DNA from: Elusimicrobiota bacterium
GTDB taxonomy: Bacteria > Elusimicrobiota > Elusimicrobia > UBA1565 > JACRDR01
Assembly: GCA_041694815.1 (NCBI GenBank)
Contig: JBGFSC010000033.1
Location: 32,001-96,000, forward strand
DNA length: 64,000 nt
Reading direction: 5' to 3'
The translations under genes were made by a program, and so were the position numbers. The notes under the pieces are model-generated. The model searched no databases. It was not told the DNA's origin and saw only the letters and a program-made list of their open reading frames with translations. This document shows positions 26,886 through 64,000 of the stretch, in pieces. Position 1 is the first letter of the stretch; the number at the start of each line of letters is the position of its first letter.

Positions 26886-29800
26886 ATGGCACGCCCTATC
26901 GCCCTGCTGGCCGGCCTTCTTCTGGCGCCAAGCTTTTGTTGGGCGGTCCCTCAGGATATCTCCGGCGGCATCTCCACCGCCGAACCGGGCTCGAGGAAGG
27001 TATTCTATCACGAATCCTATGATCGGACATGGGTGTTCTACCAGAACAGCTTAAGCAAGTTCGCCTACCAGTCCTACGACGGGGTCAACTGGACGGCAGA
27101 CACCCAGGTTTTTCCGGCGGCGGATGTTTCCGCGGCCGGCTGCACCGGAACCCCGGGCCCCGTGGGTAGCATCTGGTATGTCGCTTCCTCCACCCGCGTT
27201 TATGCCATTGCTGGGGAGGATTCCGCGAACGAAACCAACGACAATACCAACGCCAACTATCCCAACAAGGTCTATTTGCGCCGCGGAGACTTAAATTCGG
27301 ATGGGACGATCACCTGGGGCAGCGTGGCTTGCCGGGCCCGAGACATCACCTTTGACGGCGGATTGGGGGATTATCTGGCGGGGATGTCCGTGTCCATCGC
27401 GGTTCCCGAGGATGAAACCGCAAACGGCGGCAACAACCTCATGTGGGTGGCTCATTTTAGGCGCAGGACCACCGTTTTCCGCCAGGCCCCAGCCGGACAG
27501 AACCAAATCACGGCGGCGACTCTGGGCGGCGGAGTGGATTTGCAAGACGGCCACGCCCTTCAAGAAGCCAGCAACGCCAATGGCTTTGAGAGCGTGGTGC
27601 CTATCAACGATGCCGGGACCTGGAAATTCTTGGTAGGCAATAATGATCGTTCCGATCAATCGGATCCGATCGTAGACCGTTTTGTAGTCAGCGCCGCGGC
27701 CCGGGAGCTTGGCGGAGAACTCGACCCTACCGGTCCCGGGATCAACAACAACGCCTACTCCGTCTCCTTGGCTCCCGAGGGGGCCTCCTCCATTGTCCAT
27801 GCGGCCTATGTCGACAGCAGCGGCCGTATCGCGTATCAAAGGCGCACAGGCGCGGGGACCTGGGCCGCGGCGATCGTGGTGGATGCTTGCGCGGCGGTCA
27901 ATAGCTCTCCGTGCAAAAATCCGTCCGTGGCTTATGTGCCAGACCCCGCGACCTTTAATAGGGTGTATATCGTATATCTTTCCAGCTACGGCGCCGTCAA
28001 TTATGCCGTAGGCCCGGCCACCGCCACGGCAGCCGGAGAATTCACCGTCATCCAAGGCTGGCAGTCGAGCGGATCGAATCCGATCGTTCCGGTTAAAAGC
28101 ACGGCCCCGGCGCCGCTGGCGGTCGTTTGGAACGACGCCTCCCCACAAGCCAAGATCGACTTTATCATCACCTCCGGATACGCGTCCCCGACTGTCAGCT
28201 CGGTGGCCGAAAGCCCCGGCAAGGCCTGGTTAAGCTCCAACAAATTCGATCTGTTGATAACGGGGTCCAACTTCCTGGATCTGGGAGGCACGAAGAAGCC
28301 AAAGGTCAAGCTGTTGGAGAATGGAGCGGATCAATCCGCTATCACGGTCACTTCCACCACCTTCGTCAATGCCAGCACTCTTCGGGCTTCCATCGTCCTG
28401 ATCGCGCCGACGACCTCCTATGACGTGAGGGTTATCAATCCCGACGCGAAGTTTACCGTGTTTCAGGACACGGTGACCATTTCGTCTCCCACCCTGAGCT
28501 CTCTGACGGATGCAGACGGGAACATTCTTTCCGGAGGTATTTTCCCCAACAATAACGGTACGACCGCCATGACGCGGGATGTGACGGTCAACGGTTCTAA
28601 CTTTCAGAACTGGGGCTCCAGCGTTCCCAAGGTCTCCGTCGTTTCAGGGATTTCCTTATATGCCATTACGGGCCTTAGCAGCAACTCGTTTGTCGCAAGA
28701 CTCAAGATTTCAACGACGACGGTTGCCGGCACCTATGCCCTCACGGTTCAGAATCCGGACAATCAATCCGTGACCCAGTCCTCCACCTTTACGGTGACCC
28801 GGCCCTCGGCCACTATCAACTATCCCATCGAAGGCAACGGCCTGCTGGGCGGATTTACCACGGGCTTTGCCACCCTCAACGGGGTGGCAGACTATGATAC
28901 CACGGGGGACGGCCTGGGGGATTCGGTCGCCGGGATCACTCAAAATACATCGGATATACGCATCGTCTCCCTTGGAGGCGCCGGTTGTCCTGCAAACGGC
29001 TATCTCTGGAACGGAAGCGGATTCGCCGCGCCCGGGAGCTTCGCGGATCAGGAGCAGGAGTGGCAGGCGGCCAGCGCCCCGAGCCCGTGGGCGTACTCCA
29101 CCCTCAATATGAATCTATTCCAAGCGGTCGATACCGAAGGGTGTCCCTTCCGGCTGGAATCCCGGGGAAGGAGCTCCGATGGGGGGCGAAGCATGGCTTC
29201 CGGAGCCGGAATCGTCACCCTGACCATGGACCGCAAAAGGCCGGTGATCGATGTCACCTCTCCACCGGGCGGCCAGATCATCAATACGGCCGATAATATT
29301 TTCATGGTTTTCAGCGATGTCTCCGGAGTCAAGAAAGTGGAATTCACGCTCCAGGCGGATACCGAAACGGCCCGTTACTGGACCGGATCCTCCTGGACGG
29401 CGAACGAGATGTGGCTTTCCACCCCGGCCAGTCCCCAGATGCAGTTCAACCCTCCCACCGCCAGCAACAATGTCACCATCAGGACGATAACGGACGATCT
29501 CAAGCGCCCGGCCTGGGTGGATGGATGGAAATATCGGATCAAGGCCAGGGCCACCGACCGGTTGGAGCAATTGGGTTATGCTCCCGGCGGGGCGTCTGCC
29601 CCCACCGAAACGGTGTTCTTCTACGACGTTTCGGCTCCTACGGTGACCTTGGAGTCTCAATGGCTGAACGTCTCCACATGCACCGTGGCCTCCGGTTGCG
29701 CTACCAGCTGGAAAAGGTCCGTCCCGTCGATCGGCGGCGGCATTTCCGACAATGTTTCGATCCTGGAGGCGATCCACAACCCCAACGTCAAATTAAGGAT

Positions 29801-32800: not shown

Positions 32801-35800
32801 TATCAACGGCTTTTTGTCCGCGGACGCGACGAGCTGGACCTACGCCCCGGCGGGTGTCGACGGGGATTTCACCGGGGGTTTCGAATATCTGGTGCTGACG
32901 CGCTCGACGGATGTGGCCGGCAATATCCAGGATACCTTCGCCGCGGACGTTTCCTCGCGCGTGATCCGCATCGACAAGAGGGCGCCGGAGTCCTACGGAT
33001 CGTTTCCGGTCGACGATGGCGACGGCGCCAGCGGGCGTTATCGTTCATCGCTGGTCGGGCAGACGGGGAATTCGACCCATATTCGAGGTACGGCCCAGGA
33101 CCCGGCCGAGGGGAGCACCCCGTCCGCCGGCGTATTCGCGACACAGCTCCGTCTCTCGTATTTGAGCGGAGGGACCTCGTACTATTGGACCGGGACCACG
33201 TTCAGCTCCTGGACGGTGACGCAGAATTCCGCCTGGAACAGCGCCCTGGTGACCGGCAGCGCCCCCACTTGGAATTGGGATTACCTCGTCAATATCGACT
33301 TCAACGAGGTCGACGGGGCCGCGCAGCCCGCCGTCGACCGCGAGTACCGGCTCGAGATGCGCTCCGAGGACGCCTCCCGACTGGCCGACGGAAGCGGGGC
33401 CGGCAATGTCGAAACGCCATCCAATCCGCCGGCCGACACCCTCCATTTCATCGTCGACGATTCGACCCCGGCCGTGCTTATCACCACGCCTTCGGCCGCG
33501 GCGCTGGGCTCCTTGAGCGAGATCTCAGGCACGGCCGCCGCCGCCCTTTCGGGCCATCGAAGGACGGAACTCAAGATTTCGACGGGCACCGGGGCTAGCA
33601 CCCGCTACTGGACCGGTTCTACGTGGACCGCCAACGAGCATTGGATCACGACCGCGAGGCTTGGCCAGAGCTCCTGGACCTACACCGTGCCGGCCAACCT
33701 ATTCGACGGCGATCTTCCGCTGACCGAATACACGTTCATCGCGCGTACTCTCGATTACGCGGGCAACTATTCCTCGCTGTACTCGACCAAGACCCTGGTC
33801 CATGACGACGTCGCTCCCTATGCGGCCGTCGGATTTCCCATCTCGGGAGGCTTCTACAACGCCGCCGGGATCGTGACGAGCTCTGGCAGCGTCTCGGACA
33901 GCGCCGCCGGGAATACGGGAATCACCGATGTTCGGATCGTTTTAAAACGCGTCGACCCGCCGGTCGGATATTGGAAACAATCGGATAATACCTTTCCGCC
34001 CGGCATCCAGCGATCGACGGTCAATATTTTCACTAGCTCGTGGACCGTCGCGATGCCTGCGCTATTTAGCAACGTCAGCTACCGTATGTGGGTGGAGGCC
34101 ACCGACGGCGCGGGGAACATCTACTGGGCCAACGCGAACGCCTCGCAGGCCGCGGCCGACACGGACATCGGCAATAATGTCGGGGGGGTGCCCTTCCTCT
34201 ACGATAACGATGTCCCGCTATCGGTCACGACCTCTCCCGCCAACAACGCCTTAATCCGCTCGCAGCTCTCGGCAATCGCCGGAACGAGCATCGACGGCCT
34301 GGGCTCCTCGGGACTGTCGACCTCCGCCGGAGACCAGTTCCGCTTCCGCCTGCTGCGCAGCTCCGGCCCCCCGGGAAATTACCAATATTGGCAGGGAGGG
34401 GCTTCTTGGGGCAGCGTGGCCGATTTCTTCATCACCCCCGTTGAGATTGACGCCGCGAACAAGAAATTTTCGTGGATCCAGGCACTTCCCGCCGGGGCCT
34501 TCCTGGATGACGGGCGCGAATATAAAACCCGGATCCGCGCCCGGGACCAGGCCAACAATACGGAATCGGAGAAGGAATACCGCTTCATCTTCGACAGCTC
34601 CGTACCGGACAGCAAGATTACCTCCCCCGCGCACGATTCCTTTATCAATGCCACCGCCTTCACGATCTCCGGCACGGCCGATGATCGCATCAATTACGGC
34701 CAGGGGCAGGATTTCGAGGCCGGTTTGGCCGTCAACGGGGCCTCCGTGGCCGTGCAGCGATTGAGCGACAATCAATGGTGGAGCGGTACCGCTTTCAATC
34801 AAAGCTCCCCTTTCTGGAGTTCCGCTACCTTTGTCGGCGCTTCCTCGGGGACCTTCAGCTACGCGATCACCCTCACGGCCGATACCAGCTATTACGTGGT
34901 CGCCAGGGCATTGGACCTGGCGGGCAATCTCGAAACGGATCTAAGCACCAACACCTTCACCGTCGACCTCCAGAACCCCACCTCCCGGTCGACCTCTCCG
35001 ACCGGGACGCTCAACCAAATGACGGCCATCTACGGCACGGCGAGCGACCTGCTGCCGGGCCAGCTCGACGGGATTCTCCTTAACATCGTCCAGACGGCCG
35101 GGACTGGCTCGCCTCAGACCTGGACGGACACGGGCTGGACGGCGGGGGACTCGAGCATCTGGGTGGGCACCGGCACGATCGGCGCGCTCATCACCGGAAC
35201 CACCTACGCCTGGAGCTTCTCCGGCAGCACGATCGCCTGGCTCGCCGATTCCAGCTATAAGGTAAGCACCCGCGCCCGGGACAAGGCCGGCAATTACCGC
35301 CCGATTCCCGGCAGTCCGGATATCACCTTCTCGCTCGCCGGGCCCTTATCCGGCATCACCACTCCGAGCAACGGCGCCCCGCATTTCAAGTCGGCGGCCC
35401 TGACCTCGATACTGGGCACGGCGATCAATTCCTCGACCGCCGCCGTGCGCCTGACCCAGGCCGGCCCGGACCATGCCTTCGCGGTGGGCAACGACGATCT
35501 GGCCTGGCATAGCGGCTTGGGCTGGGTGTCGACCAACACCTTCAACGGCTACATCGGCGTGACCAGCTACAACGGCGCCCCCGACCCGGACACCTGGAGC
35601 TATTCCTTCTTGGCCGCCAACTGGCAGAACAATCGCAAGTACAAGGCCGAGTCCATAGGCCGCACCCTATCGCCCGCCGTGGACCAGAGCGTGTTCACGG
35701 GAGCGGAGACCCGCGAGTTCATCATCGACGATTCCGCGCCTTCGGCGGCCGTCACCCTGCCCAGCGCGCTCTATTACCGAGCCGGGCAATTGCCGAATTT

Positions 35801-59800: not shown

Positions 59801-62800
59801 CTTCGCGGCCTCCACCGACACCTTGAGCTTCCCGTTGGACCGCTACGAGACCACGTTCTATTACCTCGACACGATGGCCAGCTCCTCCTACCCTCCGGGA
59901 CAGACGGCCCCCGTAATCGGGCTCTGGGACAAGGCCACGGTGCTATTTTCCACCTCCCAGGCCGTCAACATCACCCCCGAGGTAATCCAGGCGATCCGCG
60001 TGCGTCCCTCGACAAGCACGGCGTTGCTGGCCGGGACCACCTCGGAGATGATGGTCTTCGAATTGCAGGACCAGTTCGGCAACCCATCCGCGTTGCAATC
60101 GGGCCAGGAAGATCTCGGTCCCTCGCCGTGCCCGTTCCCGTGCGTGGAGTTCCAGCTGACCTCGGATTCCAACGGCAAGAAGCAGTTCTCGAGCCCGAAC
60201 GTCGGCGCCTTCAAGAACTCCACCGGTACGGCCTACATGGCCATCGGGCAGGCCGCGACGACCTTCTACCTCATCGACGACATGGTCTCGCCGACCACCT
60301 GGACCCTCACCGTAGAGACGGTGCGCAGCCACGGCTGGACGAAGGGCATCTCCACCTATACCGTCAAGCCCGGTCCTCCGGTCCTGGCGCTGTTTACGAC
60401 CCCGCAGCGCTACCTCATCGCGGGCACCACGGTCCAGTTGAGCACGGCGACGCAGCAGCCGATCCCGACCCCGATCACGCTGCGTCTCGTCGACGCCTTC
60501 GGCAATGTCACCTCCTCGAGCTGGGCCGCCCATACGGCGAACTTCTACTCGAACTTCACGGGCTCGACTCGCGGCGGCATCGACCCGACGCAGACGGTGG
60601 TCGACGGGGCCAACTGGCCCTTGATCGCGGCGAGCTCCTTGCCGGTGACGATTCCGGCCAACAGCAATTCGGCCACGGTGTATGTCTGGGACACCGTGGT
60701 CTCGACCCTGCCGCTGATGGCCTCGGTGATCCGTCAGGACGGCTACGCCCTGCCCCTCTCAAGCCAGAGCGTGTTCATCACGCCGGCGAAGGCCGACTAC
60801 ATCACCATCTACCATCCCTTCCCGGTGACGGCGCCCTTGAAGGTCAATACCCCCGGGATCCTGACCCGCAACGTGGGCGGCAAGAACCTGGGCGTCGTGA
60901 TGCGCGACCGCTACGGCAATATCGCCTCGGGGCATCCGATCAACAAGCAGCATTTCAGCGGTGCCGTGGTCTTCAGCACGAACCGCTCCACCAAGACGGT
61001 GAGCCTCGTCGACACGACGAACAGCACCACCACGCCGCGGATGTACGTGTTCAACGGCGAGTCCGACGCGACGCCCGGCATCTACAATGGACTGCAGATC
61101 CAAGACAGCATGGTCTCGGAACTTCAGGTTTTCGCGACCGCCTACGCCAACGCGGCGATCTGGGGCCGCACCAATGACGCCAGCCGCTCCTTCAACAACT
61201 CGCCCCCGCCGCCCTCCTCCGCCTTCTCGGACGGCAATGTCTTCACCGCCGGCCTCGTGGTCACGCCGACGGACATGGCCCCAGAACAGGACCCGGCCAC
61301 GGGCCTGGTGGTGGCGCATAAGCAGTCGTTCCAGAGCCGCGCGGTGTTGCGCCAGGGTGACGGCACGACCTCGAACTCGCCCGATCCGGTCCAGATGCTA
61401 CGGCTGTCCTTCAATATCCTGCCGTCGACGCCGACACTAAACGCCAAGCTTTCCGCCATCCGGGTGCTCAAGACGGGGTTCTTGGCCACCGATAAGGTCC
61501 CGGAGGTGGCGCTCTATTATGACGAGAACCATGACGGCCTCTTCCAGTCGGGCTCCGACGTGCGCATCGCCACGGCCGCCTTCGACGGTTCGGGCTGGCG
61601 CTTCGGCGATCCCAGCTACAATCTGACCCCGCTCAACGTGGCCGATCCGGGACGCACCTTCGTCGCCGGGGTCAATACCGAGGCGATGAATTTCTTCCTG
61701 ACCGTGCGCATTTCGTCCGCCGGTTACGGGGCGACGGAGCTGCCGAGCTCCTTGGGCATGAGCATCCCCTCGCCTTCCTACGTCACGCTGACGGGCGACA
61801 GCCTCACGGGAGTGGCGGAAAACAACTTCTCCATATTGACCGCGACGTCGGTGGTGCAGCGCGCCCCGGCGCAGATCTATGTCAAGGGCACCGATATCAA
61901 CGCCTGGTGGTCGCCTCCCTCCTTGAGCCTGTCGAGCTATAATTACGTCGACCAGGGCGCTTCGTTCGTGGGCGTGCTCAAGCTTCAGATGTGGACACCG
62001 AGCTTCACGGGCACGCTGGGCCGGGTCCACGTCATCCACACCGGTACGGGCTTGGACATCGATATCAAACGCCTGCATCTGTTCGTCGACTGCGATACCA
62101 ACGGGAATATCGCCAACGGCGACGGCAAGTTCCAGGCCTCCATCGACAAGGAGATCACCGACCCGGCCATCCTCGTGAAGTTCACCACCAACACCCCACG
62201 CGCCGCCGACCTCGTGCTCAAGGTCGACCCGAACGACAGCAACAATTACTCGTTCCGCACCATCACCCAGTCGACGATCACGTATTTCGTGGTCTATGAC
62301 TATGAACCCGCGGCCGTGGCGTACCTGGACCATGGAACGCAGGTCGGAACCGCCGACATCGTCCCGCTGGGTGGGGATGGCGACGTCGTGCCCTTCTCGA
62401 CCATCCTGACGACCAACGTATACGTGCGCCCGACGGCCGACCTAGCCGCCGTCGAGAAGGTCAACAACCCCGGCACCGGCAACGCCGCGGCGGTGCCCGC
62501 CTCCATCACCCAGGCCGATGCCAATCAACCGGTCATGAAGCTGACCCTGCGGACATTGAGCGGCGCGGCGAGCTGGTCGGGCCTGAAACTGGACCGTTGG
62601 GTGCCCTCGAGCTTGAGCGGCAGCGTCATCTTGAACAAGGCGGCCGACGTCAAGAATATCCAGATATGGGCGGATGTCAACGGGAACGGACTCCTGGATC
62701 CCACCACCGACCAAATCGTAAGTCCCTTGAGCGGCATCGTGCATAATTTCCCGCAAAGCACCCTGGGCGTGGCCATCAGTTCGACGCAGGCCGGGCCGCT

Positions 62801-64000
62801 CGACGTCGTCGTCACTAATCTCTCGGCCTTCTTCCCGGCCGACGACGTGTTCCCGTCCGTTCCCCAGCGCCTGGTGTTCGCCGACGACCAGACCGACCAG
62901 GCGAATAAGGAGGTCTTCGTCTGCACTGGCATCTCCTTCTCCTCGGGAGCCTTCACCAACTGCATGCCCGGCCAGGACCAGACCACGCGCAAAAACCACG
63001 CCGTCGGCACCGTGATTTCGGGCCCCGCGCGCGTACCCGTGCAAGGCACCGGAGGCGGACAGACGCTCACCGTCTTAAACAAGGACTTCTTCGTGGCTTA
63101 TGACTTGGATCCGTTGGCCACGGTCAACCCTTCGGCCAACCTTGGCGCTATCATCCCGACCACCCATTACTTCCTTATCCAATCCCCGAAGCGGATGCAC
63201 GACAAGGATTCTAATGGCACCGTATCGGTCGGCATCCCGCCGAACGGCAAGACGATGTCCTTGGTGTCCAACGTAGCCGAATACGCGGACAAGATCGTCG
63301 TCGTCGCCTCCAATACGGTCGACGACGTGAATCTGGGCCCCTTCCTGCAGCAGAAATCGACCGGGGCGGTGCTCAATTTCTCGCTTTACACCGACGTCGC
63401 CGACGCCTTATGGCGCTGGGTGATCGTGACGGCCACGGGCACCTCGGCTGCGGCCGGCAATGTCTCCAACGACGTGCAGCTGGTCTCCTTATGGCGTGAC
63501 GCCAACAATAACGGCAGCTTGGACGTTAACGACGTGCTGGTGGGCACGGGGACTTTCGGCAACACCGGCCAGCCGCTCACCTCTCGTGTGCAGCTGAGCA
63601 CGCCGTTTAGGCTGATGACGCAGGCCAAGGCGCCGACCCCGCAGCGCTTCTTCGTCGCTTATTATCTAAGCGCCAACGCGCAGTCCAATGACCCCATCAC
63701 CCAGGCGCCTCGTACCTTAGGGGCGGTGCTCACGGCGGGCTCCTTCCCGCAGAACAATCCCACCGTCGACGATTATTTCGCCAACGCCTTCACCCTGCCC
63801 AATATCTACAATCCCGCTTCCCCGCTTCCCTTCGAGGGCAAGTCGCGGGCCATCATCCCGGCGTCGCAGACGATGTACGTCAAGACGACGCCGATGTTCT
63901 CAAGCTCCAGCGGCACCTTCGTGGCCCCCACGGTGTCCTTCGCCGTGCCGGCCTCCACGCCCGCAGCGGTGGACGCCGCTTGGGTGATCACCTCATCGGC
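26886..64000 (+). CDS. Giant secreted multi-Ig-like repeat protein (>12,370 aa, 3'-truncated by window edge)
   Basis: ATG 26886 MARPIALLAGLLLAPSFCWA signal peptide. No + strand ORF in the track after 26886 starts in this frame, as expected if it has no stop. Spot translations throughout and at the window end (AAVDAAWVITSS) are in frame and give repeating D.xP..GTA.D...YW.G..W...RA.D.AGN units. Confidence 0.92.
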   Translation, partial: MARPIALLAGLLLAPSFCWAVPQDISGGISTAEPGSRKVFYHESYDRTWVFYQNSLSKFAYQSYDGVNWTADTQVFPAADVSAAGCTGTPGPVGSIWYVASSTRVYAIAGEDSANETNDNTNANYPNKVYLRRGDLNSDGTITWGSVACRARDITFDGGLGDYLAGMSVSIAVPEDETANGGNNLMWVAHFRRRTTVFRQAPAGQNQITAATLGGGVDLQDGHALQEASNANGFESVVPINDAGTWKFLVGNNDRSDQSDPIVDRFVVSAAARELGGELDPTGPGINNNAYSVSLAPEGASSIVHAAYVDSSGRIAYQRRTGAGTWAAAIVVDACAAVNSSPCKNPSVAYVPDPATFNRVYIVYLSSYGAVNYAVGPATATAAGEFTVIQGWQSSGSNPIVPVKSTAPAPLAVVWNDASPQAKIDFIITSGYASPTVSSVAESPGKAWLSSNKFDLLITGSNFLDLGGTKKPKVKLLENGADQSAITVTSTTFVNASTLRASIVLIAPTTSYDVRVINPDAKFTVFQDTVTISSPTLSSLTDADGNILSGGIFPNNNGTTAMTRDVTVNGSNFQNWGSSVPKVSVVSGISLYAITGLSSNSFVARLKISTTTVAGTYALTVQNPDNQSVTQSSTFTVTRPSATINYPIEGNGLLGGFTTGFATLNGVADYDTTGDGLGDSVAGITQNTSDIRIVSLGGAGCPANGYLWNGSGFAAPGSFADQEQEWQAASAPSPWAYSTLNMNLFQAVDTEGCPFRLESRGRSSDGGRSMASGAGIVTLTMDRKRPVIDVTSPPGGQIINTADNIFMVFSDVSGVKKVEFTLQADTETARYWTGSSWTANEMWLSTPASPQMQFNPPTASNNVTIRTITDDLKRPAWVDGWKYRIKARATDRLEQLGYAPGGASAPTETVFFYDVSAPTVTLESQWLNVSTCTVASGCATSWKRSVPSIGGGISDNVSILEAIHNPNVKLRIFDITATNLYLDTGTLSFTNIAAGNAWFDAKKSGGHANCSVNGSAGTWNCSFSAVPVGGSCGAQGGPGCGWQNGREYRIEVYGLDGAGNSTGTAASPLFTRYFKFDADNPTITIDYPIEGGLYGLNGTNDPRGSSGDSTSGVDYVEYRLEYPGSGGLTKWTKGVTGSCSGGAKGPNDWCDQTAAIWNIAGTTTTVPYAVWHASEATNAGKWVNGEQYALIARVVDKAGNFSVTYATVTFKLDSSSPVASVSFPGASTFFSAQIGGVNGFVQDYPLTTRQSGIDLMKIGIQRLGDGFWWNGASGWQATRNDPAQAVVQGSPGENTAWSHANFGGFWSNITWSSETFRVYAWAQDKVDQPSSAYRNVESSQTLDQTFYYDVMSPTSSVIAPINNQWYSAVSGYDLSYILGTATDRPASGPGSGNTIFRAYAEIRYPDDGDANKCWGGTAFDKQCYQDGGATCGSAASSWQEMTISGSSWTFPVQAGGGALWTAMTDGKTYQVRVCSLDNAADSTGASNFSSRNKETNFTSNVNEKSLRVDKSGPSSLIQSPNQAEVSILTTISGTASDGNSGIFHVRVAYYGETEANWWNPVTRAFDLGGASSNPPDSAFIAASTQTLNPVPWEVSGASIPAMVNGQFYRIFAAGQDQVSNTTTFPGHGSYTNPPTQSSFIRIKRVAAAPTSAINVPGAGEPHYKPSGGQSLTSISGSLADATTLQIRLTNVSAEPDQVWTGASWVSTVTYLAGCTNTTYVVGQSTCGFIGADNTTWSESVSALPWPAGTNRIQCEARAATESPLVVQNEPFPSRLFVIDGDNPNNTLTEPNAAYERWLSTITGIATDIGLGVISNVEIALSTASQSSYWNGSGSWVVGPAIWLGATANSPPFDSNNEAWSRSSGLPAFENNKTYEIQVRLTEKSGRTFLFPQPGPTFNFTIDTASPTARILAPVVNSGIRSLPQLWGTAADNGQNQSVQIAIQKLSATPLWYDGADFLVPGSNPNWIFIQNGINGFLSADATSWTYAPAGVDGDFTGGFEYLVLTRSTDVAGNIQDTFAADVSSRVIRIDKRAPESYGSFPVDDGDGASGRYRSSLVGQTGNSTHIRGTAQDPAEGSTPSAGVFATQLRLSYLSGGTSYYWTGTTFSSWTVTQNSAWNSALVTGSAPTWNWDYLVNIDFNEVDGAAQPAVDREYRLEMRSEDASRLADGSGAGNVETPSNPPADTLHFIVDDSTPAVLITTPSAAALGSLSEISGTAAAALSGHRRTELKISTGTGASTRYWTGSTWTANEHWITTARLGQSSWTYTVPANLFDGDLPLTEYTFIARTLDYAGNYSSLYSTKTLVHDDVAPYAAVGFPISGGFYNAAGIVTSSGSVSDSAAGNTGITDVRIVLKRVDPPVGYWKQSDNTFPPGIQRSTVNIFTSSWTVAMPALFSNVSYRMWVEATDGAGNIYWANANASQAAADTDIGNNVGGVPFLYDNDVPLSVTTSPANNALIRSQLSAIAGTSIDGLGSSGLSTSAGDQFRFRLLRSSGPPGNYQYWQGGASWGSVADFFITPVEIDAANKKFSWIQALPAGAFLDDGREYKTRIRARDQANNTESEKEYRFIFDSSVPDSKITSPAHDSFINATAFTISGTADDRINYGQGQDFEAGLAVNGASVAVQRLSDNQWWSGTAFNQSSPFWSSATFVGASSGTFSYAITLTADTSYYVVARALDLAGNLETDLSTNTFTVDLQNPTSRSTSPTGTLNQMTAIYGTASDLLPGQLDGILLNIVQTAGTGSPQTWTDTGWTAGDSSIWVGTGTIGALITGTTYAWSFSGSTIAWLADSSYKVSTRARDKAGNYRPIPGSPDITFSLAGPLSGITTPSNGAPHFKSAALTSILGTAINSSTAAVRLTQAGPDHAFAVGNDDLAWHSGLGWVSTNTFNGYIGVTSYNGAPDPDTWSYSFLAANWQNNRKYKAESIGRTLSPAVDQSVFTGAETREFIIDDSAPSAAVTLPSALYYRAGQLPNFTGTITDTVPGAANSASVRFRLLRMKDSYEWNGSTFAASGIDLVPTDQGGGNYSFANSTGDAVFEDGLLYKVRITAQDLATNQTVVEQPSPNGFRFDVSKPTATISVPKAGYVINSLPQLSGTAADFMSGSGNYQGSGVSGVNVYLQNLANGSYFNGSGFLSATPVPLAASFYAPSGTWTYTSGSLESSLTDGLYSLYVEAADNAGNVQVNFTANNSSRTFAIDKTAPSRAITTPVSQAYTPAAIFSANVTGTNTDSVVNSTAAGADFVELQLWYVVGVSSYYWSGSWSTTISTLQASGASWSLLAQQPPQTGANSWARGADAVDTERRYYVRVRAHDKSTLGDGSVSPSTGNVSSWSSPLGFIVDPILPVSSVTTPSNGSFASALPSISGTADGGLSGLGSPGGVVVRITTNPSTGPDWNGSAYSFTGVPIFRSVTVTGNSWSYPGSTGDNLTGAFQDHNVYYVYSKATDGAGNPESGMFVSTVTIDASAPSLSISHPSTPPNPPFYSNNTESTRKSTYTWGAISDPAPVPSGVTQVWVAIASGSSLNVWWSTTTNSFSVNQTAVHWSTQVYVPGAARWEYYPPWTLSDQISYKVFVRASDGAGNWTGNIVNPGDAGELSQQFKYDILRPTGTVSGPANGSNVKSLAAFSGSAADPGGSAGSGIQIVYAGVKKTSVIPNEWWNWGTKQFDSGLSDPPALSPLSAAWTQVATTSAQGFNSVGWSTPVPVNMLVSSNTYQVVVAAVDWATNRPPDAEPTLSGAGANFRYDTQAPVVAATFPVSGLAYNAASLTPLAGTAADNTTGNSGVQSVQILLKNSVTNSYWSGSGNIFDAPPSGYSNWVTMSGKETWSRSWPSLDSNVKYILWVRGSDNAVNISTYPAYPADQGRLDANQNIDGSVAINFIYDTDPPVSKMTSPQPGAYIQNPAVLATVSGTAYSDVANVSGASYVDQVRLNLYCSGCAAGDVPGWWTGGGWSTTQPDPPQFAASGPPGSPSVNWSFSFSNSWAEGYQYIVYSRARDFATNLESPQAQGGFIVDLSTPSASLVSPANNVFYVSVSSVTGSADDRFCTFNPALCVVNNRDKQAGIAGSSVTVVIQRLSDYKYWSGTAFDSTVPVWSSANFVGMSSGTWSYSINPSFLVDGSSFAVTARAKDQAGNLQLSYSTNVFTIDSQAPTSMATAPATTVDVMTPIYGTASDPAIGVLDGVLLNIVQTVGNGSPQTWTDTGWVAGNSSIWVGTGTIGALITGTTYAWSFSGSTITWLSNSTYQIKTRARDKAGNYRPVPGSADLSFSISGPLSGITTPSNGAPHFKSAALTSILGTAINSSTAAVRLTQAGPDHAFAVGNDDLAWHSGLGWVSTNTFNGYIGVTSYNGAPDPDTWSYSFLAANWQNNRKYKAESIGRTLSPAVDQSVFTGAETREFIIDDSAPSAAVTLPSALYYRAGQLPNFTGTITDTVPGAANSASVRFRLLRMKDSYEWNGSTFAASGIDLVPTDQGGGNYSFANSTGDAVFEDGLLYKVRITAQDLATNQTVVEQPSPNGFRFDVSKPTATISVPKAGYVINSLPQLSGTAADFMSGSGNYQGSGVSGVNVYLQNLANGSYFNGSGFLSATPVPLAASFYAPSGTWTYTSGSLESSLTDGLYSLYVEAADNAGNVQVNFTANNSSRTFAIDKTAPSRAITTPVSQAYTPAAIFSANVTGTNTDSVVNSTAAGADFVELQLWYVVGVSSYYWSGSWSTTISTLQASGASWSLLAQQPPQTGANSWARGADAVDTERRYYVRVRAHDKSTLGDGSVSPSTGNVSSWSSPLGFIVDPILPVSSVTTPSNGSFASALPSISGTADGGLSGLGSPGGVVVRITTNPSTGPDWNGSAYSFTGVPIFRSVTVTGNSWSYPGSTGDNLTGTFQDNNIYYVYSKATDAAGNPEAGMFVSTVTIDASAPTAAIHRPAAPAGSPYSNVSVSTRKILLSSGAVSDNGAGASGVSVVWLAISSGSGASAKWWSDGTQSFSVGPQLAVSWSTQVYQGGSSWSYGPASFASAFQNGNYYTVFLRAQDKVGNWTGNIVNPGDAGQISQQFLYDDVVPATTIQAPWGAFMNSSTTTLWGTAADVGLVNSDVLDVKLAVRQGAAWWNFQTNAGFNVADPSDINGAAWSTTTVTSLGGGQWKWQLPFSTANYTSGTSYQIVARGKDKATNITIGAPPTSEGTTFLYDNGAPLINSTFPANAQAYNAARLEPLAGTASDASTGNSGVQTVRILLKNKNLNSYWSGSGSTFDSPPGGYSNWVTMTGTGTWSRALPTLSDNQQYVLWMRAHDFATNVSTYPAYPADQARLDSNQSMDGSAALTFTYDNSLPVSKLTSPKPGSAVANTGAVATISGTAYTDAPNTITGSVVDQVLINLHCSGCATGNVPGWWNGASWDSGAEPNPPLFGAALALPNWSYSAFPSGIWLDGYRYTIYSRARDAAQNLESPEAAGAFVVDRSTPLSKPDFPADNGFTNASAVTLTGTANDRFCEINPGLCINGVRSFEAGVATVSVLVQQMDGINNYFWDGGSFASAAPVWSTAPFVGMSSGTWSYALPAAQLSTPMRYKASVRVEDKAGNIQTSAVITTNTWVRDLTPPVSIATAPAGQFSGVSSIHGTARDASPGELDVVLLSIQETACSNPSGNCHVNQYWNGSTWTVGQVWLASGTIGSLISGTTYAWTMNASSILWDNKSTFTVIAAARDKAGVVEATHSSPDITFYIETPEATIALNQPPSPGGASYQSNAATVIQINGTGTNMKLSGGVQLHLKRLSEPTSYWYDLSQRWVNDASTYTPVNVIDGSPQTWNYSLNFPYSVNNSSYILTVTPVNNANQAGSGPKTALFYIDNSAPVSAVTSPSGPSCGGANGCLNTFAVSIAGNSSDPGNINPLPTIVQSGVKLRVKNNVTGDYWNGANFVGSVSEIGVGPLSGGPPTFSWSTGPYIGGLRDGVDYTIYAHAQDTAGNDTVSEGQMTSFSFVYDTSPPTGYLVLPSSGFAYGNLTTISGTSADAAGANPNNRRSDMDRVELQIFDPKNNFCWRSDNSWGGCPSWVTAAGTAPWSYSNANLIAPNLVSGNQYIITARGVDKVGNTQGVFAVPDSSHTVAIDTVAPTIGLIVPADGQAYVSGALNGGTALSGTAADAQAGLHPSGDALQSVELVLWYLHDSPTPGTSYYFTGSIGSNGTKFSSNTVESSNWKVAASTANWSLQFFAADWVLDRRYYIKARATDKSRNPNGTLNGNQTSVFTQGKNLVSFVVDDIAPVSRSTFPAPNSYVQNLNFISGTSNADLSGASTYYLRIVYLAAGDTYYWNGTGWGAANVQTQLPIQIPNSTGTLHWSYPVSWHTSPDMTGRPDGTIFFVAMQAKDKAGNLETPTTIQVTLQTNPPAVSISTPMASMPYYGAARPLDPLRGTSADSISGVKEVRVQISNLSDGTKWNNSSWQVLASSFNIATGTNPWTYAAPSWVNNKSYRVDVQADNFAGVSSNPAAGVLFTYDVNAPSSAIQVPSLAWYPQGQPSSLSGTAQDWVHYPSTQAKSGLQHVEIAITNQAGDYWQGGCPGSFAAGASWRWVSTTTADPASWSYPPSVPAGDCIPPWQNNQQYTVQVRAYDNTGNPENTPYQTRTFRYDAFKPTTTVTEPANASYVQSISTFSGSYTENESGVASIKIAIKNQANNCWDGSGFALDCSVAPPASAWFNAAVHTSTWSYYSPNFAAYFAALSVPVQFYVYAAGQDVAGNLNRSTTTTLTNGSANVSFFIDHFPPESRTTAPAAGYSQNLVASIAGTANELNLSNEAGLSGTTAVGLRVSATDGNGTIRYWDGIDWSLTDQGFNVPIDAGYSGGTPGGTQMSWSHNATYLPVSQFREGLSYRISSRARDLSLPPNYEGTSITTITFLIDRSTPTAAFLVPISTNIGQPVYISTSNFSLSSGTLADPNFTLGAPFNAPSVPSGISAVDFQIEDVSASIPDCTGACKWWNPNTPGWQSTEFSSSAALYQSSWTFASMPDWTRGFSNADGRQYALRTRARDRAGNQGAFPNTLTSVVKVVFDPTRPASGITSPADGSIANSLDSISGTSSDPLVNGSSSGVKAAHLSIQSDPANTQNPGLFWNSAGNNWVSARVWNATTLSGTNWTYTSAALTSNLKVDDFYILISSVVDNAGNQQNSLPVSGSPGYSRVRYQPPPAATTVSVPQSLGYYNKLSLFQGTANGNTVKNELQLIRKDTGRCWGDSLGWVDCAVDVATATRVVFPSGGNWSYPPGVESMPNWAALNNSSFTFRERGLNSAGIPEAWQQVEFFIDMSSPVSSVALPANNSFVNGNPVLGGSVSDPVLNGVAAGILNPNGVKLRLKRTDNNYYWDAAVSTWVAPVTASTAAYWIAGASWTFASSSPTLTWMNGLSYTLDVFGVDKAIGGAQGNTEVPAPAISFTYDVVPPQVGVARPGAVKERDLAVLTGTASDAAPGLLQRVQVRVQQQNGSAYWHPTDHTFTEPNGELAWFTATSSNSWADWHVSSSSILTFVDGSTYTIIARSQDRAGNYAAVYDSNTVVYDSLPPISGILTPANNSFVNTLPKIEGTVSDYPAVNPGLIQVMKVRLRRLSDGTYWNGSDFIVAISTLSSASAQVSIWPSSWSVVTSWIPTAAKLNSGTSYYISSAGTDDSGDGNIEAWGNPQSSIFTYGNSPATTTISVPVSGRIYGALTSFSGAGFSDVGLSTVTLMLKDNTNGKCYSEITSTFTAVCPSVFSAQGSTSAWTYLLNSPPWSHAHSYVLSSSATDRAGNTQLALSSAPFTFDLRAATAAITQPSGQYLNLAQSSMLQGTATDSPAGVAEFRIALSSANGALGSWYNGVSFNGDSAASTYQSASLYTPGSPDNWQRTLSGMTDGGSYLVNVRLRDGATPYNQSITTFTFVYDVTPPTATITSPPHDSYQKLGFTTIAGGSADPVGPGGSASNVSTISVSIQQMGGNCYVMGGGFTAGCPNWIAASGSPGSWTFTPNPTPFSDGVRYIVNARATDNAGNPQTAFAVGTSSNTFTYDLAIPVVGFTVPGTSGREKDFSIFRGTASVASPAVLAAAQFRVLRLSGVQQYMDPGNPPSYGFNLDPGTQSEIAWFNAQSTSSVKWTEWFLSSGSSFASGQTYRFETRAQTSAGNYSNNYSSVTVVYDTDPPFTNVQTPVHLSTVSSLGFIWGTAYDQPVNPLSSGTISTMRVYLRRASDGAYWDGGAWNGNPSILSAAHQVKIWRSSWTMGANLPNNSQLVSGASYYITTSGIDNALPGGNTENFFQPPKSSTFTVDLDVPGSSVTSITNGQVLSSLSSISGTAEDLLAGISGASQIAVKMEEISPNNGCWNGAIVGGTFTAASCPAAFYAITSGDIGGTYSPVSKFWSMSAPPLANQMTYRISVRATDNATPTGNTPSGAAISSITFTYNTSLPQTGVSFPPTLPAAGGNLSAAFTITGTASDPFGVVAASFSIQEVDTSMYYDAATSTFSSVAQKWLAVGALGGTNPNRSFSVAAPAIAATSGRNYNIQSKAINTAGTEGTGAIVSIKYDTTKPAATAATPPNGGYINFLSSVTGSSSDPGALNSGVAGNQVQIQRDDGSCWSGAVWGACGTTWLTANAGTPAAWRLTTQLPPSNNQNSGLEDGRQYTVSARAFDVAGNTQTATTSNSFRFDVSSPTLSIQVPANGQWYNGLAQISGQSQDNFNIRFPEVRIYDIALGKYWKDGTGWVDSGFGYPEIWNLSIDSTSTNGVLNWRYDASAIGWFNGANRFRVDVKSFDAAGNFTLAQSTFSYNVLPPYASISYPQPGLTFSSMTALSGISTGTVADIQSVGIKISYFSGGTTYYYTAGVPHWNTTDPGYLAITGSGGPPATNNPWSYTNPQAVDFNNPTSGNYAWRQGTHNGSNGHLFTISVRATDVSGLSQVGVTTTSFRFDNVPPTTMPIQPSTNSAFTINALNVIKGTTFDDVAGVQSAAVSILGQDEPGGAKYFDGTGFNSAGQLWLAITPANLYPSSFSYSNASLNWIDGRHYVVSSTATDKIGNIQSAVASARVLIDTTPAVSSVLNPGNAVTRPNTLILSGNSSDPGFSSGQATDIEGTGSGVVPRFPWAAGKVELLVFRDTGTALSGPGPVNFGGWDSDGFFWNGSTWVAASAGQTWVQAAFNGDTGAWEYNGLVCVSTSIPCWVNGQQYVAWVRASDNAGNLQSAISAGPLFFISADAKSFDMSVSVNPMNAGADVTLTVTAKDDINGGGGIARGYQGTVNFSIDSGAGPETMDNDDTPDDNFGLPKSYAFTIGAGADNGTHNFTIRLRKAGARIIRVQDSVNSGIFGDEPVTVNPIAAERVQLIADNPTGQQHSPGKTSSPQGRTGSPATKTAGNSVSYLVQVVDRYWNLIVSSAASVTISDSDPYNDALSPDATLNFVGSTTFNRTFVTASPSGHVVQATGQGAYPNNSNPATAVPVQGKVRDRLLALWPGETREQGKYTAAPYGKSGTVEDLLAGTTFALRVYAVDEYYNTDLGAGDSITASLPTDPNAAALTQAFVSGTTTFALKPIMAGSDTAKVNTLAALANATYYFTPNQATVWWNLPVKLQLIAEGQAAGPGLAPYDADPTTGGRSDPTPAVLTAGVTTQITVNLVDTYFNVVKGTHPFIPQTSSVTMPLAQLEFINDPYIVPRFAPLTQKSLVKGTTTFSFIPAKRSGSLGLRIRDTQATGTSYSTDTVSNITVNPGVAVGLQVLVSSSPAPNTPGEVAQEGSVAGKTGSPGPLIAGDTYYIVVNAVDALNNRVNDGSADRLVNLLSNDPWANWTGPLNLALGQVTFTDFVPSASTGNLTVSAIDASAFNPKLSTQTSSNITVNPGSPKRLLIVMPGETLQGGKTTPPVGVTGSPADQLAGEAFTASVYATDDRYNRVTGVAKPSINITSNDSHAATIGSYSMSNGSAAITGITLRTAGARTLTATDGGGGGPALSTVVSSSFTLTPRPATRLRVILPSESRDPGSTTNGRTGSSYSLTAGSTLTVTVDLTDSLWNLTPGTSQEIRLTCDDPFASITPSTAVVVSSKTFQVNVKRAGTTHVTAQLLVGPPPAWGPNLASDTSTDINVSPGTPSRLLVLLPGESFDQGSPTGKVNTPSAQTAGTQFNVVVGVIDEYKNLVTGRAADVQIVPGLDPYAAAVATKAINTSVGYTPSMPVTLKYATTGQYFTATDVTPPSGSGLSSDPQSSTFTVNAALPVGLQVLMPGQTAVPGSGNYPNGGRTGSVSTPTAGVSFNVTVNLVDPYMNVYKGAGTFPNVYLNSDDVNAVNSSTMSLSNGSVNVPMTLVTKRNNTTIRAYPRDQAADKVCTGNASPYICRNDSPAAVTPAFKVYAATATQFQVLLPGETPVPGQCNVQPSVVCRTLTGSQRPGKNGLPNSQVVPTGFNVTVNLVDDYFNLCTNLTGNGQDTNPPVATMPIVQVRSPSDSAMVSVPSGGQQLEFGTWDFSVTPFAALSTYTIVASTTASSAMSISSASSAEVWTLPGVAHHLHWANMPSVVTAGSLFSGDIIAHDQFHNRLSTGPNVYKDTVTVTGPNNPAPQNINPITVLFGTGDQGLRTINNLTLKKAGTNQSLVGTQNTNNLIHTAVASFSDPIPAITVNAGPASAITVDPPANQVVNVRAGSFSSPGFKTFTAQISDSFGNAVQAATTAYLQLVSVVGTPGTIRYSSNTWINMGVSTTVVSDNKGRIGKNTDSDNTNMPLALFVSPTVPDSTRIWIGTMTFPGGDLTPYINTRINISGTFATIGGDPRTLVFVSSPTSPVLVDEVPASGADFIIERRDDFGNATDSGQTDVTLNLPAAQVQAHTAAGFTAGVSFTIQGDYGFMDTGNNYIPSLSFLEGIKQVSFRYRDKMSSYAGPSVSSNTGFGGRPGAWTLEIVPTSIGVSSISFNLQMEPKDPFQLGFGNPKRTLQAGKPRDAGNKLHSFQAQIHDRFRNPRVPVTPINVFVSTVTRTPSKFADSFSFSLSSTLAAGSPPAFAASTDTLSFPLDRYETTFYYLDTMASSSYPPGQTAPVIGLWDKATVLFSTSQAVNITPEVIQAIRVRPSTSTALLAGTTSEMMVFELQDQFGNPSALQSGQEDLGPSPCPFPCVEFQLTSDSNGKKQFSSPNVGAFKNSTGTAYMAIGQAATTFYLIDDMVSPTTWTLTVETVRSHGWTKGISTYTVKPGPPVLALFTTPQRYLIAGTTVQLSTATQQPIPTPITLRLVDAFGNVTSSSWAAHTANFYSNFTGSTRGGIDPTQTVVDGANWPLIAASSLPVTIPANSNSATVYVWDTVVSTLPLMASVIRQDGYALPLSSQSVFITPAKADYITIYHPFPVTAPLKVNTPGILTRNVGGKNLGVVMRDRYGNIASGHPINKQHFSGAVVFSTNRSTKTVSLVDTTNSTTTPRMYVFNGESDATPGIYNGLQIQDSMVSELQVFATAYANAAIWGRTNDASRSFNNSPPPPSSAFSDGNVFTAGLVVTPTDMAPEQDPATGLVVAHKQSFQSRAVLRQGDGTTSNSPDPVQMLRLSFNILPSTPTLNAKLSAIRVLKTGFLATDKVPEVALYYDENHDGLFQSGSDVRIATAAFDGSGWRFGDPSYNLTPLNVADPGRTFVAGVNTEAMNFFLTVRISSAGYGATELPSSLGMSIPSPSYVTLTGDSLTGVAENNFSILTATSVVQRAPAQIYVKGTDINAWWSPPSLSLSSYNYVDQGASFVGVLKLQMWTPSFTGTLGRVHVIHTGTGLDIDIKRLHLFVDCDTNGNIANGDGKFQASIDKEITDPAILVKFTTNTPRAADLVLKVDPNDSNNYSFRTITQSTITYFVVYDYEPAAVAYLDHGTQVGTADIVPLGGDGDVVPFSTILTTNVYVRPTADLAAVEKVNNPGTGNAAAVPASITQADANQPVMKLTLRTLSGAASWSGLKLDRWVPSSLSGSVILNKAADVKNIQIWADVNGNGLLDPTTDQIVSPLSGIVHNFPQSTLGVAISSTQAGPLDVVVTNLSAFFPADDVFPSVPQRLVFADDQTDQANKEVFVCTGISFSSGAFTNCMPGQDQTTRKNHAVGTVISGPARVPVQGTGGGQTLTVLNKDFFVAYDLDPLATVNPSANLGAIIPTTHYFLIQSPKRMHDKDSNGTVSVGIPPNGKTMSLVSNVAEYADKIVVVASNTVDDVNLGPFLQQKSTGAVLNFSLYTDVADALWRWVIVTATGTSAAAGNVSNDVQLVSLWRDANNNGSLDVNDVLVGTGTFGNTGQPLTSRVQLSTPFRLMTQAKAPTPQRFFVAYYLSANAQSNDPITQAPRTLGAVLTAGSFPQNNPTVDDYFANAFTLPNIYNPASPLPFEGKSRAIIPASQTMYVKTTPMFSSSSGTFVAPTVSFAVPASTPAAVDAAWVITSS
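35352..37163 (+). repeat. Intragenic direct repeat copy 1 (1812 bp, apparently identical to 39693-41504)
   Basis: Offset 4341 bp; ORF-track translations in several frames are identical at this offset (35888/40229, 36544/40885, 36617/40958). Confidence 0.92.
39693..41504 (+). repeat. Intragenic direct repeat copy 2
   Basis: Matches 35352-37163; first mismatch at 41505 versus 37164. Confidence 0.92.

Follow-up and report, generated by a model that had tools for sequence, protein, structure and literature searches.

The window analysed here, a 64,000-nt stretch of an Elusimicrobiota genome corresponding to positions 32001-96000 of contig JBGFSC010000033.1, contains most of a giant gene that begins inside the window and ends beyond it. 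The locus encodes one genuine, uninterrupted giant gene, whose product is best read as a candidate surface adhesin and whose neighbours include two cyclic di-GMP (c-di-GMP) riboswitch aptamers, a gene for a PorV/PorQ-family barrel and a set of flagellar-type motor genes. Positions past the window edge are given in the coordinates of sequence record L001, which equal the window coordinate minus 60000. The giant gene is organised as follows (aa, amino acids; HMM, hidden Markov model; GC3, G+C content at third codon positions):

26886..64000, + strand: giant open reading frame, in-window part, aa 1-12,371 (open frame, native GC3)
26886..26945, + strand: signal-peptide-like N-terminus of 20 aa, aa 1-20 (read by eye from the translation)
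26946..28145, + strand: predicted beta-propeller head, aa 21-420 (AlphaFold2 model, Foldseek)
28143..28853, + strand: two related units of ~130 aa, aa 420-656, IPT-like by eye (self-HMM)
28749..54554, + strand: class-I array, 66 Ig-like units in tandem, ~131 aa each, aa 622-9223 (iterated HMM)
35019..37275, + strand: segmental duplication, in-frame copy 1 (self-BLAST, partner 39360-41616)
39360..41616, + strand: segmental duplication, in-frame copy 2 (self-BLAST, unit identity matrix)
54690..58400, + strand: 10 class-II units of ~130 aa, aa 9269-10499, motif '...TAG..F.V.V..VD.Y.N...' (iterated HMM)
58383..61955, + strand: conserved non-repetitive region of 1,191 aa, aa 10,500-11,690, used as family marker (homologue alignment)
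61929..64000, + strand: first 3 of 7 class-III units with Ca-loop-like 'D.NGNG..D' motifs, the whole array covering aa 11,688-13,170 (iterated HMM)
L001 6396-8222, + strand: conserved tail, aa 13,171-13,779 (homologue alignment)
L001 7914-8222, + strand: FlgD_ig-type C-terminal domain (CTD), resembling those of the type IX secretion system (T9SS) (FlgD_ig 34.2 bits against a cut-off of 27)

The original prediction held that a frame opens at position 26886, one nucleotide after the stop of a HEAT-repeat gene, and stays open to the window edge. Both statements were borne out: the ATG lies 1 nt past the TAA of the HEAT gene, and the open reading frame listing gives 12,371 aa inside the window (26886..63998, + strand), open at the 3′ end. 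Translation through the adjacent contig sequence reached a TAA at window-equivalent positions 68223-68225 (L001 8223-8225), 4,225 nt beyond the window edge, with no interruption of the frame. The complete gene comprises 41,340 nt with zero N and encodes 13,779 aa; it occupies 1.49% of the 2.77-Mb genome, and its product, with a pI of 4.9, weighs 1.448 MDa, above the 1.2 MDa that had been set as a minimum. The GC3 is 0.84 over the giant gene, and the third position is the most GC-rich codon position in 27/27 windows of 1.5 kb. This value matches those of purA, topA and comM (0.83-0.87), which indicates a single native coding frame throughout. The N-terminus is hydrophobic, as it is in 11/11 aligned homologues; this part of the earlier signal peptide proposal stands, the signal peptide call itself having been made by eye from the translation.

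Self-BLAST of the giant gene returned a single DNA repeat, with 96.9% identity over 2,262 aligned positions of the two segments listed above and a core of 1,812 identical bases. The segments are offset by 4341 nt, i.e., 1447 codons or 11 units, and in the identity matrix 36-100% identity links class-I units 14-26 to units 25-37, revealing the duplication of an 11-unit block. Judged from these identities, the block looks like an old duplication whose core was homogenised recently. Since the offset is divisible by 3, the frame is kept under any traversal of the repeat. Outside the duplicated block, the class-I units differ, with a median pairwise identity of 23%, so that apart from this one block they are easy to assemble. 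No stretch of the giant gene matched any other contig of the genome. Among the 107 genomes found to hold the marker region, 54 have a frame of at least 10,000 aa, and one single-contig genome has a frame of 13,707 aa. Additionally, the closed assemblies G401 (record L094, titled complete genome) and G402 contain collinear homologous loci of 33-36 kb, tiled by very long frames whose ends overlap (2177, 2043, 4768 and 3470 aa in the first set; 1628, 4910 and 6024 aa in the other). These loci demonstrate long-range contiguity; their 2-3 frame switches reflect either long-read indels or decay.

The repeat architecture was in part foreseen. Of the two units at aa 420-656, earlier described as IPT/TIG-like domains, the self-HMM recovered two related units; Pfam TIG/IPT gave no match there at E<=0.01, and the NCBIfam model CoaZ_rpt_PGGG (choice-of-anchor-Z repeat) matched the second unit at 35.2 bits against a cut-off of 30. 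An array of 55-60 Ig-like units had been placed at 28800-54440; the Ig-like array is present, and its count is 66. Matches of Pfam Big_13 to these class-I units were mostly sub-threshold, the 27-bit cut-off being reached in 2/69 tiles of the giant protein, and the class-I profile gave weak matches in the PDB to bacterial Ig-like (BIg) extender domains, namely those of SiiE (2yn3, E 2e-4) and of an RTX adhesin (5irb, E 4e-4). The second repeat class, previously extended over 54440-61260, proved repetitive over 54690-58400, and the following segment, 58383-61955, is conserved and non-repetitive. The third class, with Ca-loop-like motifs expected beyond 61350, was recovered as seven units with D-x-N-G-N-G-type or DxDxDG-like loops separated by spacers of 50-170 aa, running to L001 6395. 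Neither the class-II nor the class-III profile matched the PDB at E<=1. The tail carries two further Ca-loop motifs, an fn3-like domain and the terminal FlgD_ig domain. No HemolysinCabind or other RTX family appeared among the Pfam matches of the 69 giant-protein tiles at E<=0.01. A reading of the protein as an RTX adhesin of a type I secretion system (T1SS) was rejected on this ground and on the presence of the signal-peptide-like N-terminal segment.

The N-terminal beta-rich head proposed at about 26950-28170 was confirmed in modelled form. Our alignment comprised 12 sequences, the others being 29-40% identical to the query head and all located after hydrophobic N-termini. Based on this alignment, AlphaFold2 (AF2) returned an all-beta model (predicted local distance difference test score, pLDDT, 78.9; predicted template modelling score, pTM, 0.86), according to which the fold of the head is a beta-propeller. 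Foldseek aligned the model with the sialidase Neu2 (2f24, E 2.6e-9), the Photorhabdus PLL/PHL lectins and the glycoside hydrolase BT3686, at template modelling (TM) scores of ~0.45-0.55 and 10-12% identity. With regard to the six-bladed fold of sialidases, these enzymes top the Foldseek list, with seven-bladed lectins and GH145-type enzymes reaching similar scores (TM 0.45-0.55). Pfam gave no BNR or sialidase match for the head; the protein-atlas leads were the WD40 and BNR_4 families. The active site of a GH33-like sialidase comprises an Arg triad, a nucleophilic Tyr with Glu, and an acid/base Asp; in the alignment of the heads, residues R300, Y344 and Y353 are invariant, and R17, D91 and E258 are nearly so. 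Because the modelled head resembles sialidase or glycosidase propellers as well as lectin propellers, it probably binds or cuts glycans.

A search of 1.84 billion representative proteins with the head profile retrieved 139 relatives at E<=1e-3, 16 of them at E<=1e-30, and in the strong matches the head starts nearly always within ~30 residues of the N-terminus. Across the phylum, the head was present in 31/401 sampled genomes, where it opens frames of 8,112 to 14,446 aa; the 14,446-aa frame starts with two tandem propeller heads (G212:C35:226013-229597). When the head was used as query in four genomes that hold the conserved region, three gave no match and one gave a weak partial match, which we take as variability of the head and not as a missing gene.

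The C-terminal part of the family is far more constant. Giant homologues (5/5) align with the 1,191-aa region along its whole length at 38-50% identity and with the 609-aa tail at 41-50%, both at the same relative position; the final 103 residues are 53-79% identical and terminate in the invariant sequence RKIGVIH. AF2 gave no usable model of the 1,191-aa region from 6 sequences (pLDDT 36, pTM 0.26). Its interpretation as a string of diverged class-II domains was weak, with an hhalign probability of 27% and the motif D-x-[FY]-x-N at 5 places. As a family marker, the region was found in 107/401 sampled phylum genomes and in 60/123 genera, with one match in nearly all, and was not found in two large families of small genomes (0/118 and 0/89). 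It also occurred in 79 loci of named records, nearly all labelled as metagenome-assembled genomes of Elusimicrobia or Elusimicrobiota, which supports the assignment to this phylum. The longest frame holding the marker has 19,358 aa and takes up roughly 4% of a genome of ~1.5 Mb (G073:C1, region 122793-126380). The conserved region in 107 genomes against the head in 31 thus defines a polarity: the C-terminal, presumably cell-proximal, part is conserved, and the head and the repeat number vary. Such a pattern is in keeping with an anchoring machine that stays constant and an environment-facing tip that varies.

Beyond the giant gene, the following features were identified in L001 (TPR, tetratricopeptide repeat):

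L001 8454-8530, + strand: c-di-GMP-I-GGC aptamer, riboswitch 2 (RF03167, 60.7 bits against a gathering threshold of 59)
L001 8534-10144, + strand: PorV/PorQ-family barrel with C-terminal TPR (NF033709, 98.4 bits against a cut-off of 90)
L001 10228-12180, + strand: FliF/FliG-like protein with TPR, 650 aa (profile matches)
L001 12193-13566, + strand: charged coiled-coil protein, 457 aa (sequence features)
L001 13563-13787, + strand: FlbD (89.6 bits)
L001 13801-14616, + strand: MotA, 271 aa (E 6.6e-53 to the solved flagellar MotA, 6ysf)
L001 14616-15359, + strand: MotB with plug and OmpA domains (domain matches)

The FlgD_ig match covers residues 94-163 of the last 179-residue tile and ends 16 residues before the stop; the CHU_C (type B) domain had no match in the tail of the giant protein. 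The barrel gene starts 309 nt past the giant stop, an arrangement shared by 5/7 relatives, and the barrel counterparts in 5/5 relatives scored 99-114 bits with PorV_fam, above its cut-off. In complex predictions of barrel residues 38-335 with the CTD, the median score of three runs was 0.91 (0.90-0.91), and the best control scored 0.00; the mark used for such predictions was reached by 116/157 solved complexes and by 2/215 mismatched pairs. The runs share at least 96% of their contacts, the partners have pLDDT values of at least 91, and the interface comprises 150 contacts. The predicted contacts fall on the invariant CTD motifs PNPF, YDLLGY, KGGY and RKIGVIH. The docking of the CTD into the adjacent barrel is therefore supported at the level of a structural model.

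The pairing of a CTD with a barrel extends to other proteins of this genome, which has 15 frames bearing FlgD_ig (19 matches) and 22 PorV_fam matches. A PorV_fam match lies less than 500 nt after the FlgD_ig frame on the same strand in 10/15 cases and just upstream in 3/15; the other 2/15 have none. The rule of a CTD followed by a barrel was seen genome-wide, including contigs C44, C19, C54, C40, C53, C2 and C27. A different set occurs on contig C41 (L004 7248-14218), namely an fn3 protein with CHU_C (31.8 bits against a cut-off of 27), a PorP/SprF-like barrel with TPR, and a fusion of a FliF C-terminal ring domain with FliG; it represents another kind of cargo-barrel pair next to a FliG-like gene.

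Elsewhere in the genome, on contig C19 (L002 8829-14315), we found a SprA/Sov-like protein of 1,829 aa that matches the translocon model with an E of 9.4e-42. Three of the genome's 11 matches to the FGE-sulfatase domain, which forms part of GldK-like proteins, lie 4-7 kb upstream of this gene (C19 1572-4478). GldK itself was rejected: the matches are to generic FGE-sulfatase domains and score 52-82 bits against a cut-off of 350, and control genomes match too, also below the cut-off. Profile searches of the genome for GldM and for the Peptidase_C25/PorU sortase gave no match; since the control genomes were equally silent in both searches, these negatives are uninformative on absence.

In the FliF/FliG-like protein, a signal or transmembrane segment and a second transmembrane segment flank an external stretch of ~180 aa; FliG middle and C-terminal domains (3ajc, E 6.4e-34) and a TPR tail come after them. 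The coiled-coil protein that follows has no transmembrane segment and looks cytoplasmic. The genome, which is 97.8% complete, gave no match for FlhA in a search to which four control genomes responded. FliG_C occurs four times in the genome: three loci lie beside MotA/MotB (on C38, the contig of the window, and on C15 and C7), and the fourth is on C41, where MotAB was not seen near the FliG-like gene. At C15 and C41, CTD/PorV or CHU_C/PorP-like genes are found as well. On C15 (13379-35580; L005/L006), a set of FliG-like, MotA, MotB and TPR genes lies ~4.5 kb from a gene for a 3,533-aa protein with a FlgD_ig tail, the second-largest such protein of the genome, with a PorV-like gene nearby. MotAB was also considered as a Zorya-type defence element, a reading we dropped because MotA is short (271 aa) and matches solved flagellar MotA.

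The association of the giant gene with a FliG-like gene was then counted across the phylum; these counts are descriptive and not a test, the relatives not being independent. Both genes share a contig in 57 genomes. In 52 of them, the FliG-like gene follows the marker region on the same strand at a distance of 7.3-17.4 kb (median 8.4 kb); in the other 5, one of them a single-contig genome, it is far from the giant gene. Among the remaining marker genomes, the two genes are on different contigs in 45, and 5 have no FliG-like gene among the matches listed. The whole motor module was present in 5/7 relatives inspected. FliG-like genes occur in 174/401 genomes, compared with 107/401 for the giant family, and both are nearly missing from the same two small-genome families. 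In G332, a FliG-like gene 49% identical to the present one over residues 17-646 went unflagged by Pfam at E<=1e-6.

Upstream of the giant gene, the window contains the following features:

25254..25281, + strand: sigma-70-like promoter, TTGACA-16-TATACT (11/12 matches with TG; shuffled sequences average 0.3 sites)
25294..25371, + strand: c-di-GMP-I aptamer, riboswitch 1 (RF01051, 56.9 bits against a gathering threshold of 35, E 1.8e-8)
25417..25481, + strand: long GC-rich hairpin followed by UUUUAU into the orf176 ATG (minimum free energy fold of 25285-25490, z = -3.15)
25481..26011, + strand: orf176, a small frame whose N-terminus is signal-like and whose C-terminal part has one hydrophobic segment (no family matched)
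26111..26884, + strand: HEAT-repeat protein, 257 aa (HEAT_2, 4.1e-30)

Riboswitch 1 heads the series orf176-HEAT-giant gene; riboswitch 2 sits between the giant-gene stop and the barrel gene and heads the operon of the barrel/TPR, FliF/FliG-like, coiled-coil, FlbD, MotA and MotB genes. On the basis of the predicted fold, the hairpin at 25417-25481 is the probable expression platform of riboswitch 1. A c-di-GMP-I aptamer was found upstream of the giant homologue in 8/17 relatives examined, which is a lower bound since only 1.5 kb of upstream flank was examined in 9/17 genomes, and at the riboswitch-2 position in 5/5 relatives having the downstream module. Both aptamers are thus present; they would respond to c-di-GMP and may switch on the genes behind them. 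The HEAT gene precedes the giant homologue in 5/8 relatives whose upstream open reading frames were scanned, and two relatives (L024 and L034) have riboswitch-following frames of a size similar to orf176 (175 and 186 aa), also with no family.

Other arrangements were seen upstream of giant genes in individual relatives. In one of them, a tRNA and two small open reading frames (178 and 110 aa) each occur twice in tandem (L024 2211-4322 and L018). In G354 (L029 238-3207) and G282 (L032 1535-4336), a large fusion with a spermine-synthase-like domain precedes the giant gene, the domain being joined in L029 to MFS-like and TPR parts; no riboswitch was seen within 4.5 kb upstream of the giant gene in these two genomes.

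Two further loci of the window were noted. Positions 675-7447 hold a sugar-phosphate-type bacterial microcompartment locus with genes for triosephosphate isomerase, a PTAC phosphotransacylase, an aldehyde dehydrogenase, two microcompartment shell proteins, RpiB, EutN/CcmL and a DeoC-family aldolase. At 12529-15542, LPP20-like, LipL46-like, GNA1162-like and CsgG-family lipoprotein genes follow one another in series and make up a curli-type or other outer-membrane export set.

Considering these features together, we propose that the giant protein is a c-di-GMP-induced, C-terminally anchored adhesive surface fibre of ~0.4 µm with a glycan-binding or glycosidase tip, and we give this reading a probability of about 0.72. 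A giant adhesin or surface filament, as the original prediction suggested, is the best-supported reading of the protein because of its signal-like start, its beta-sandwich repeats, the BIg-domain matches (2yn3 and 5irb) and the sorting-type CTD beside a PorV-family barrel; adhesion, or contact with a host or prey, is the function that such an architecture suggests. The riboswitches, the CTD, its PorV-like partner, the motor genes and the distribution of the family through the phylum go beyond that prediction. In many bacteria, c-di-GMP switches on surface attachment. Here, the c-di-GMP riboswitches would induce both the giant-gene operon and the barrel/motor operon. The pre-protein would leave the cytoplasm through its signal peptide by the Sec route and cross the outer membrane by a divergent T9SS-like route, with the SprA-like translocon encoded elsewhere in the genome, and its CTD would stay held in its own PorV/PorQ-like barrel, the product of the next gene downstream. 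The ~95-100 beta-sandwich domains would hold the propeller head off the cell, at an estimated fibre length of 0.35-0.45 µm if each domain contributes roughly 3.5-4.5 nm, and the head would bind or cut glycans of surfaces or cells. The motor proteins would act on the anchoring or secretion complex, a role that we regard as probable from the gene order.

Several findings weigh against this proposal. The CTD scores 17.9 bits with the T9SS type A model TIGR04183, below the cut-off of 23, and against the PDB its profile finds FlgD (E 1.7e-4) ahead of the PorU CTD (E 0.16). The complex score may reflect likeness to known structures, since PorV-CTD complexes have already been solved. The SprA-like protein scores 142.5 bits, less than the 200 bits that its equivalog model requires. 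The matches of the head are generic for propellers (TM ~0.5, 10-12% identity), and riboswitch 1 was not seen in 9/17 relatives, many of them with only 1.5 kb of upstream flank. The copy number of the repeats could be mis-assembled because the 1,812-bp internal repeat is identical, and the homologous loci of the two closed assemblies each consist of 3-4 frames instead of one.

A further-reaching alternative makes the fibre the working end of a non-flagellar, envelope-spanning rotary or force machine. In this case, MotAB and FlbD, gated by c-di-GMP, would drive a ring of the FliF/FliG fusion coupled through the TPR of the barrel to the fibre, which would be rotated, pulled, tensioned, reeled in or moved along the cell, giving SprB-like gliding or the capture of particles or prey. 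The position of the FliG-like gene just 3′ of the giant gene in 52/57 genomes, the full module in 5/7 relatives and its riboswitch point in this direction, as do the flagellar type of MotA, the retained FliG domains, the 89.6-bit FlbD match, the membrane segments and external part of the FliG-like protein, and a genome in which FlhA was not found and the positive controls responded. The argument, however, is one of synteny. No carrier of torque across the periplasm was recognised, the coiled-coil protein looking cytoplasmic; FliG-like genes occur in more genomes than the giant family (174 vs 107 of 401), with four in this genome; and the two genes are far apart in 5/57 same-contig cases, including a single-contig genome. 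We consider such a fibre-moving machine a tentative possibility and, on balance, doubtful.

Alternatively, MotAB and FliF/FliG could energise a divergent T9SS in place of GldLM/PorLM and serve all cargos with a CTD, the giant protein being the largest of them; the adjacency of giant and motor genes would then express co-regulation, with no dedicated motor. GldM, the periplasmic shaft of the known system, was not found here, the genome has a SprA-like translocon along with 22 PorV_fam matches, and FliG-like genes extend to more genomes than the giant family does. Three MotAB-FliG loci and the FliG of C41 exist in the genome, those on C15 and C41 accompanied by CTD/PorV or CHU_C/PorP-like pairs. 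However, the GldM search had no working positive control, the OmpA-type peptidoglycan anchor of MotB is typical of a stator acting on a cytoplasmic rotor, and the module directly after the giant gene in 52/57 genomes suggests a specific relation. A general power supply of this kind seems to us unlikely.

Still another possibility is that the CTD is cleaved after transport and that the protein is released as a biofilm matrix or sheath component or as a secreted long-stalk glycosidase, a role comparable to the degradation of cell walls proposed for the Omnitrophota giants. The resemblance of the head to sialidases and glycoside hydrolases would suit such a product, and c-di-GMP control fits matrix production. 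According to PMC9143113, T9SS type A cargos lose their CTD, and 10.1101/2023.11.21.568195 links cell-wall degradation to giant genes found in predatory bacteria. However, no C25/PorU-type sortase was found, the control being silent as well; the predicted CTD-barrel interface is large; and one barrel gene per cargo (10 pairs) follows the anchoring logic of SprB-SprF and PG1035-PorP, not that of shuttle and release. We therefore regard release as improbable.

Least credible by far is an artefact, i.e., a repeat chimera or a decaying gene without a protein product: it could invoke the identical internal repeat and the broken loci of the closed assemblies, but outside that repeat the units share a median identity of 23%, 54 independent genomes have frames of 10,000 aa or more, the order of head, conserved region and tail is kept across families at 30-50% identity, the GC3 periodicity is native in all windows, and no part matches other contigs of the same genome.

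The proposed anchored fibre has several implications. One protein of 1.45 MDa, encoded by 1.5% of the genome, is a major investment for the cell, and a family kept, mostly in single copy, in about a quarter of the sampled phylum genomes must therefore matter for the way in which these uncultured bacteria of groundwater meet surfaces or other cells. The locus would extend T9SS-like sorting, with its CTD, PorV-family barrel and SprA-like translocon, to Elusimicrobiota, with one barrel per cargo, and would offer a clean case of riboswitch-level c-di-GMP control over a giant adhesin. The fibre is also the most likely client of the flagellar-type rotor/stator set in cells without flagella. If this motor link is true, it bears on the evolution of the flagellar motor core and on what else such motors drive; if the fibre is indeed moved, the locus would represent a second independent use of that core, joined to a T9SS-like cargo anchor outside Bacteroidota.

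We found no paper describing the giant family, the CTD-barrel pairing, the riboswitches and the motor neighbours, although a listing in a supplementary table is possible. Literature searches found no relevant paper on type IX secretion in Elusimicrobia and none among the matches listed on FliG/MotA in non-flagellar Elusimicrobia; a 2025 survey of MotAB homologues contains no occurrence of Elusimicrobiota, adhesin or FlbD. The closest precedent for sheer size is that of the Omnitrophota giants, which, like this family, exceed 10,000 aa and occur in uncultured bacteria; 10.1101/2023.11.21.568195 describes such genes as often fragmented in assemblies. In the main text of that work, T9SS, PorV, riboswitch and Ig-like occur 0 times, and Elusimicrobia appear only as downloaded genomes. 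Elusimicrobia are counted among the phyla rich in huge proteins in PMC11573180.

The T1SS adhesins, such as MpIBP of Marinomonas, SiiE of Salmonella and LapA of Pseudomonas, resemble the giant protein in their megadalton size and long arrays of Ig-like extenders, two of which (2yn3 and 5irb) were matched. They carry a ligand-binding module at the distal end, and the surface display of LapA is under c-di-GMP control. In contrast, the protein described here combines a Sec-like N-terminus with a CTD, so that its polarity is reversed; its 69 tiles gave no HemolysinCabind match and it shows no RTX/T1SS signal, and c-di-GMP would act through riboswitches.

The module downstream recalls the flagellar motor core (FliF MS-ring, FliG, MotA5B2 and FlbD) in its MotA, its FliG domains, its MotB with plug and OmpA domains, and its FlbD. 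It differs from that core in the FliG part, which is fused behind a membrane anchor and followed by a TPR tail, in the company of a PorV-like barrel and a giant adhesin instead of flagellar genes, and in a genome where no FlhA was found.

With the PorV-CTD shuttle and the PorQ-PorZ pair of Porphyromonas gingivalis, the system shares a PorV/PorQ-family barrel predicted to grip an Ig-like CTD by conserved motifs. Each cargo has its own barrel here (10 pairs), whereas one general shuttle serves in P. gingivalis; additionally, TIGR04183 stays below its cut-off, and PorU was not found, with a silent control. The T9SS is called limited to Bacteroidetes in PMC11611037, and the present host belongs to Elusimicrobiota.

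The SprB-SprF system of Flavobacterium johnsoniae and PG1035-PorP of P. gingivalis provide the nearest likeness in layout, as both combine a huge repetitive adhesin, a C-terminal sorting domain and a barrel gene alongside. SprB is driven by a proton-powered motor, and the giant protein is about twice its length. The parts themselves differ: the CTD is FlgD_ig/type-A-like and not of the CHU_C/type B kind found in SprB, the barrel belongs to the PorV/PorQ family with TPR and not to PorP/SprF, and the adjoining motor genes are of the MotAB/FliG type and not GldLM. According to PMC9143113, SprB is held at the surface by SprF, and PG1035 by PorP, through binding to the barrel. A giant Ig-repeat adhesin is thus a known kind of protein; its control by riboswitches, its one-cargo-one-barrel anchor outside Bacteroidota and its motor parts in cells without flagella make up unusual and conserved company.

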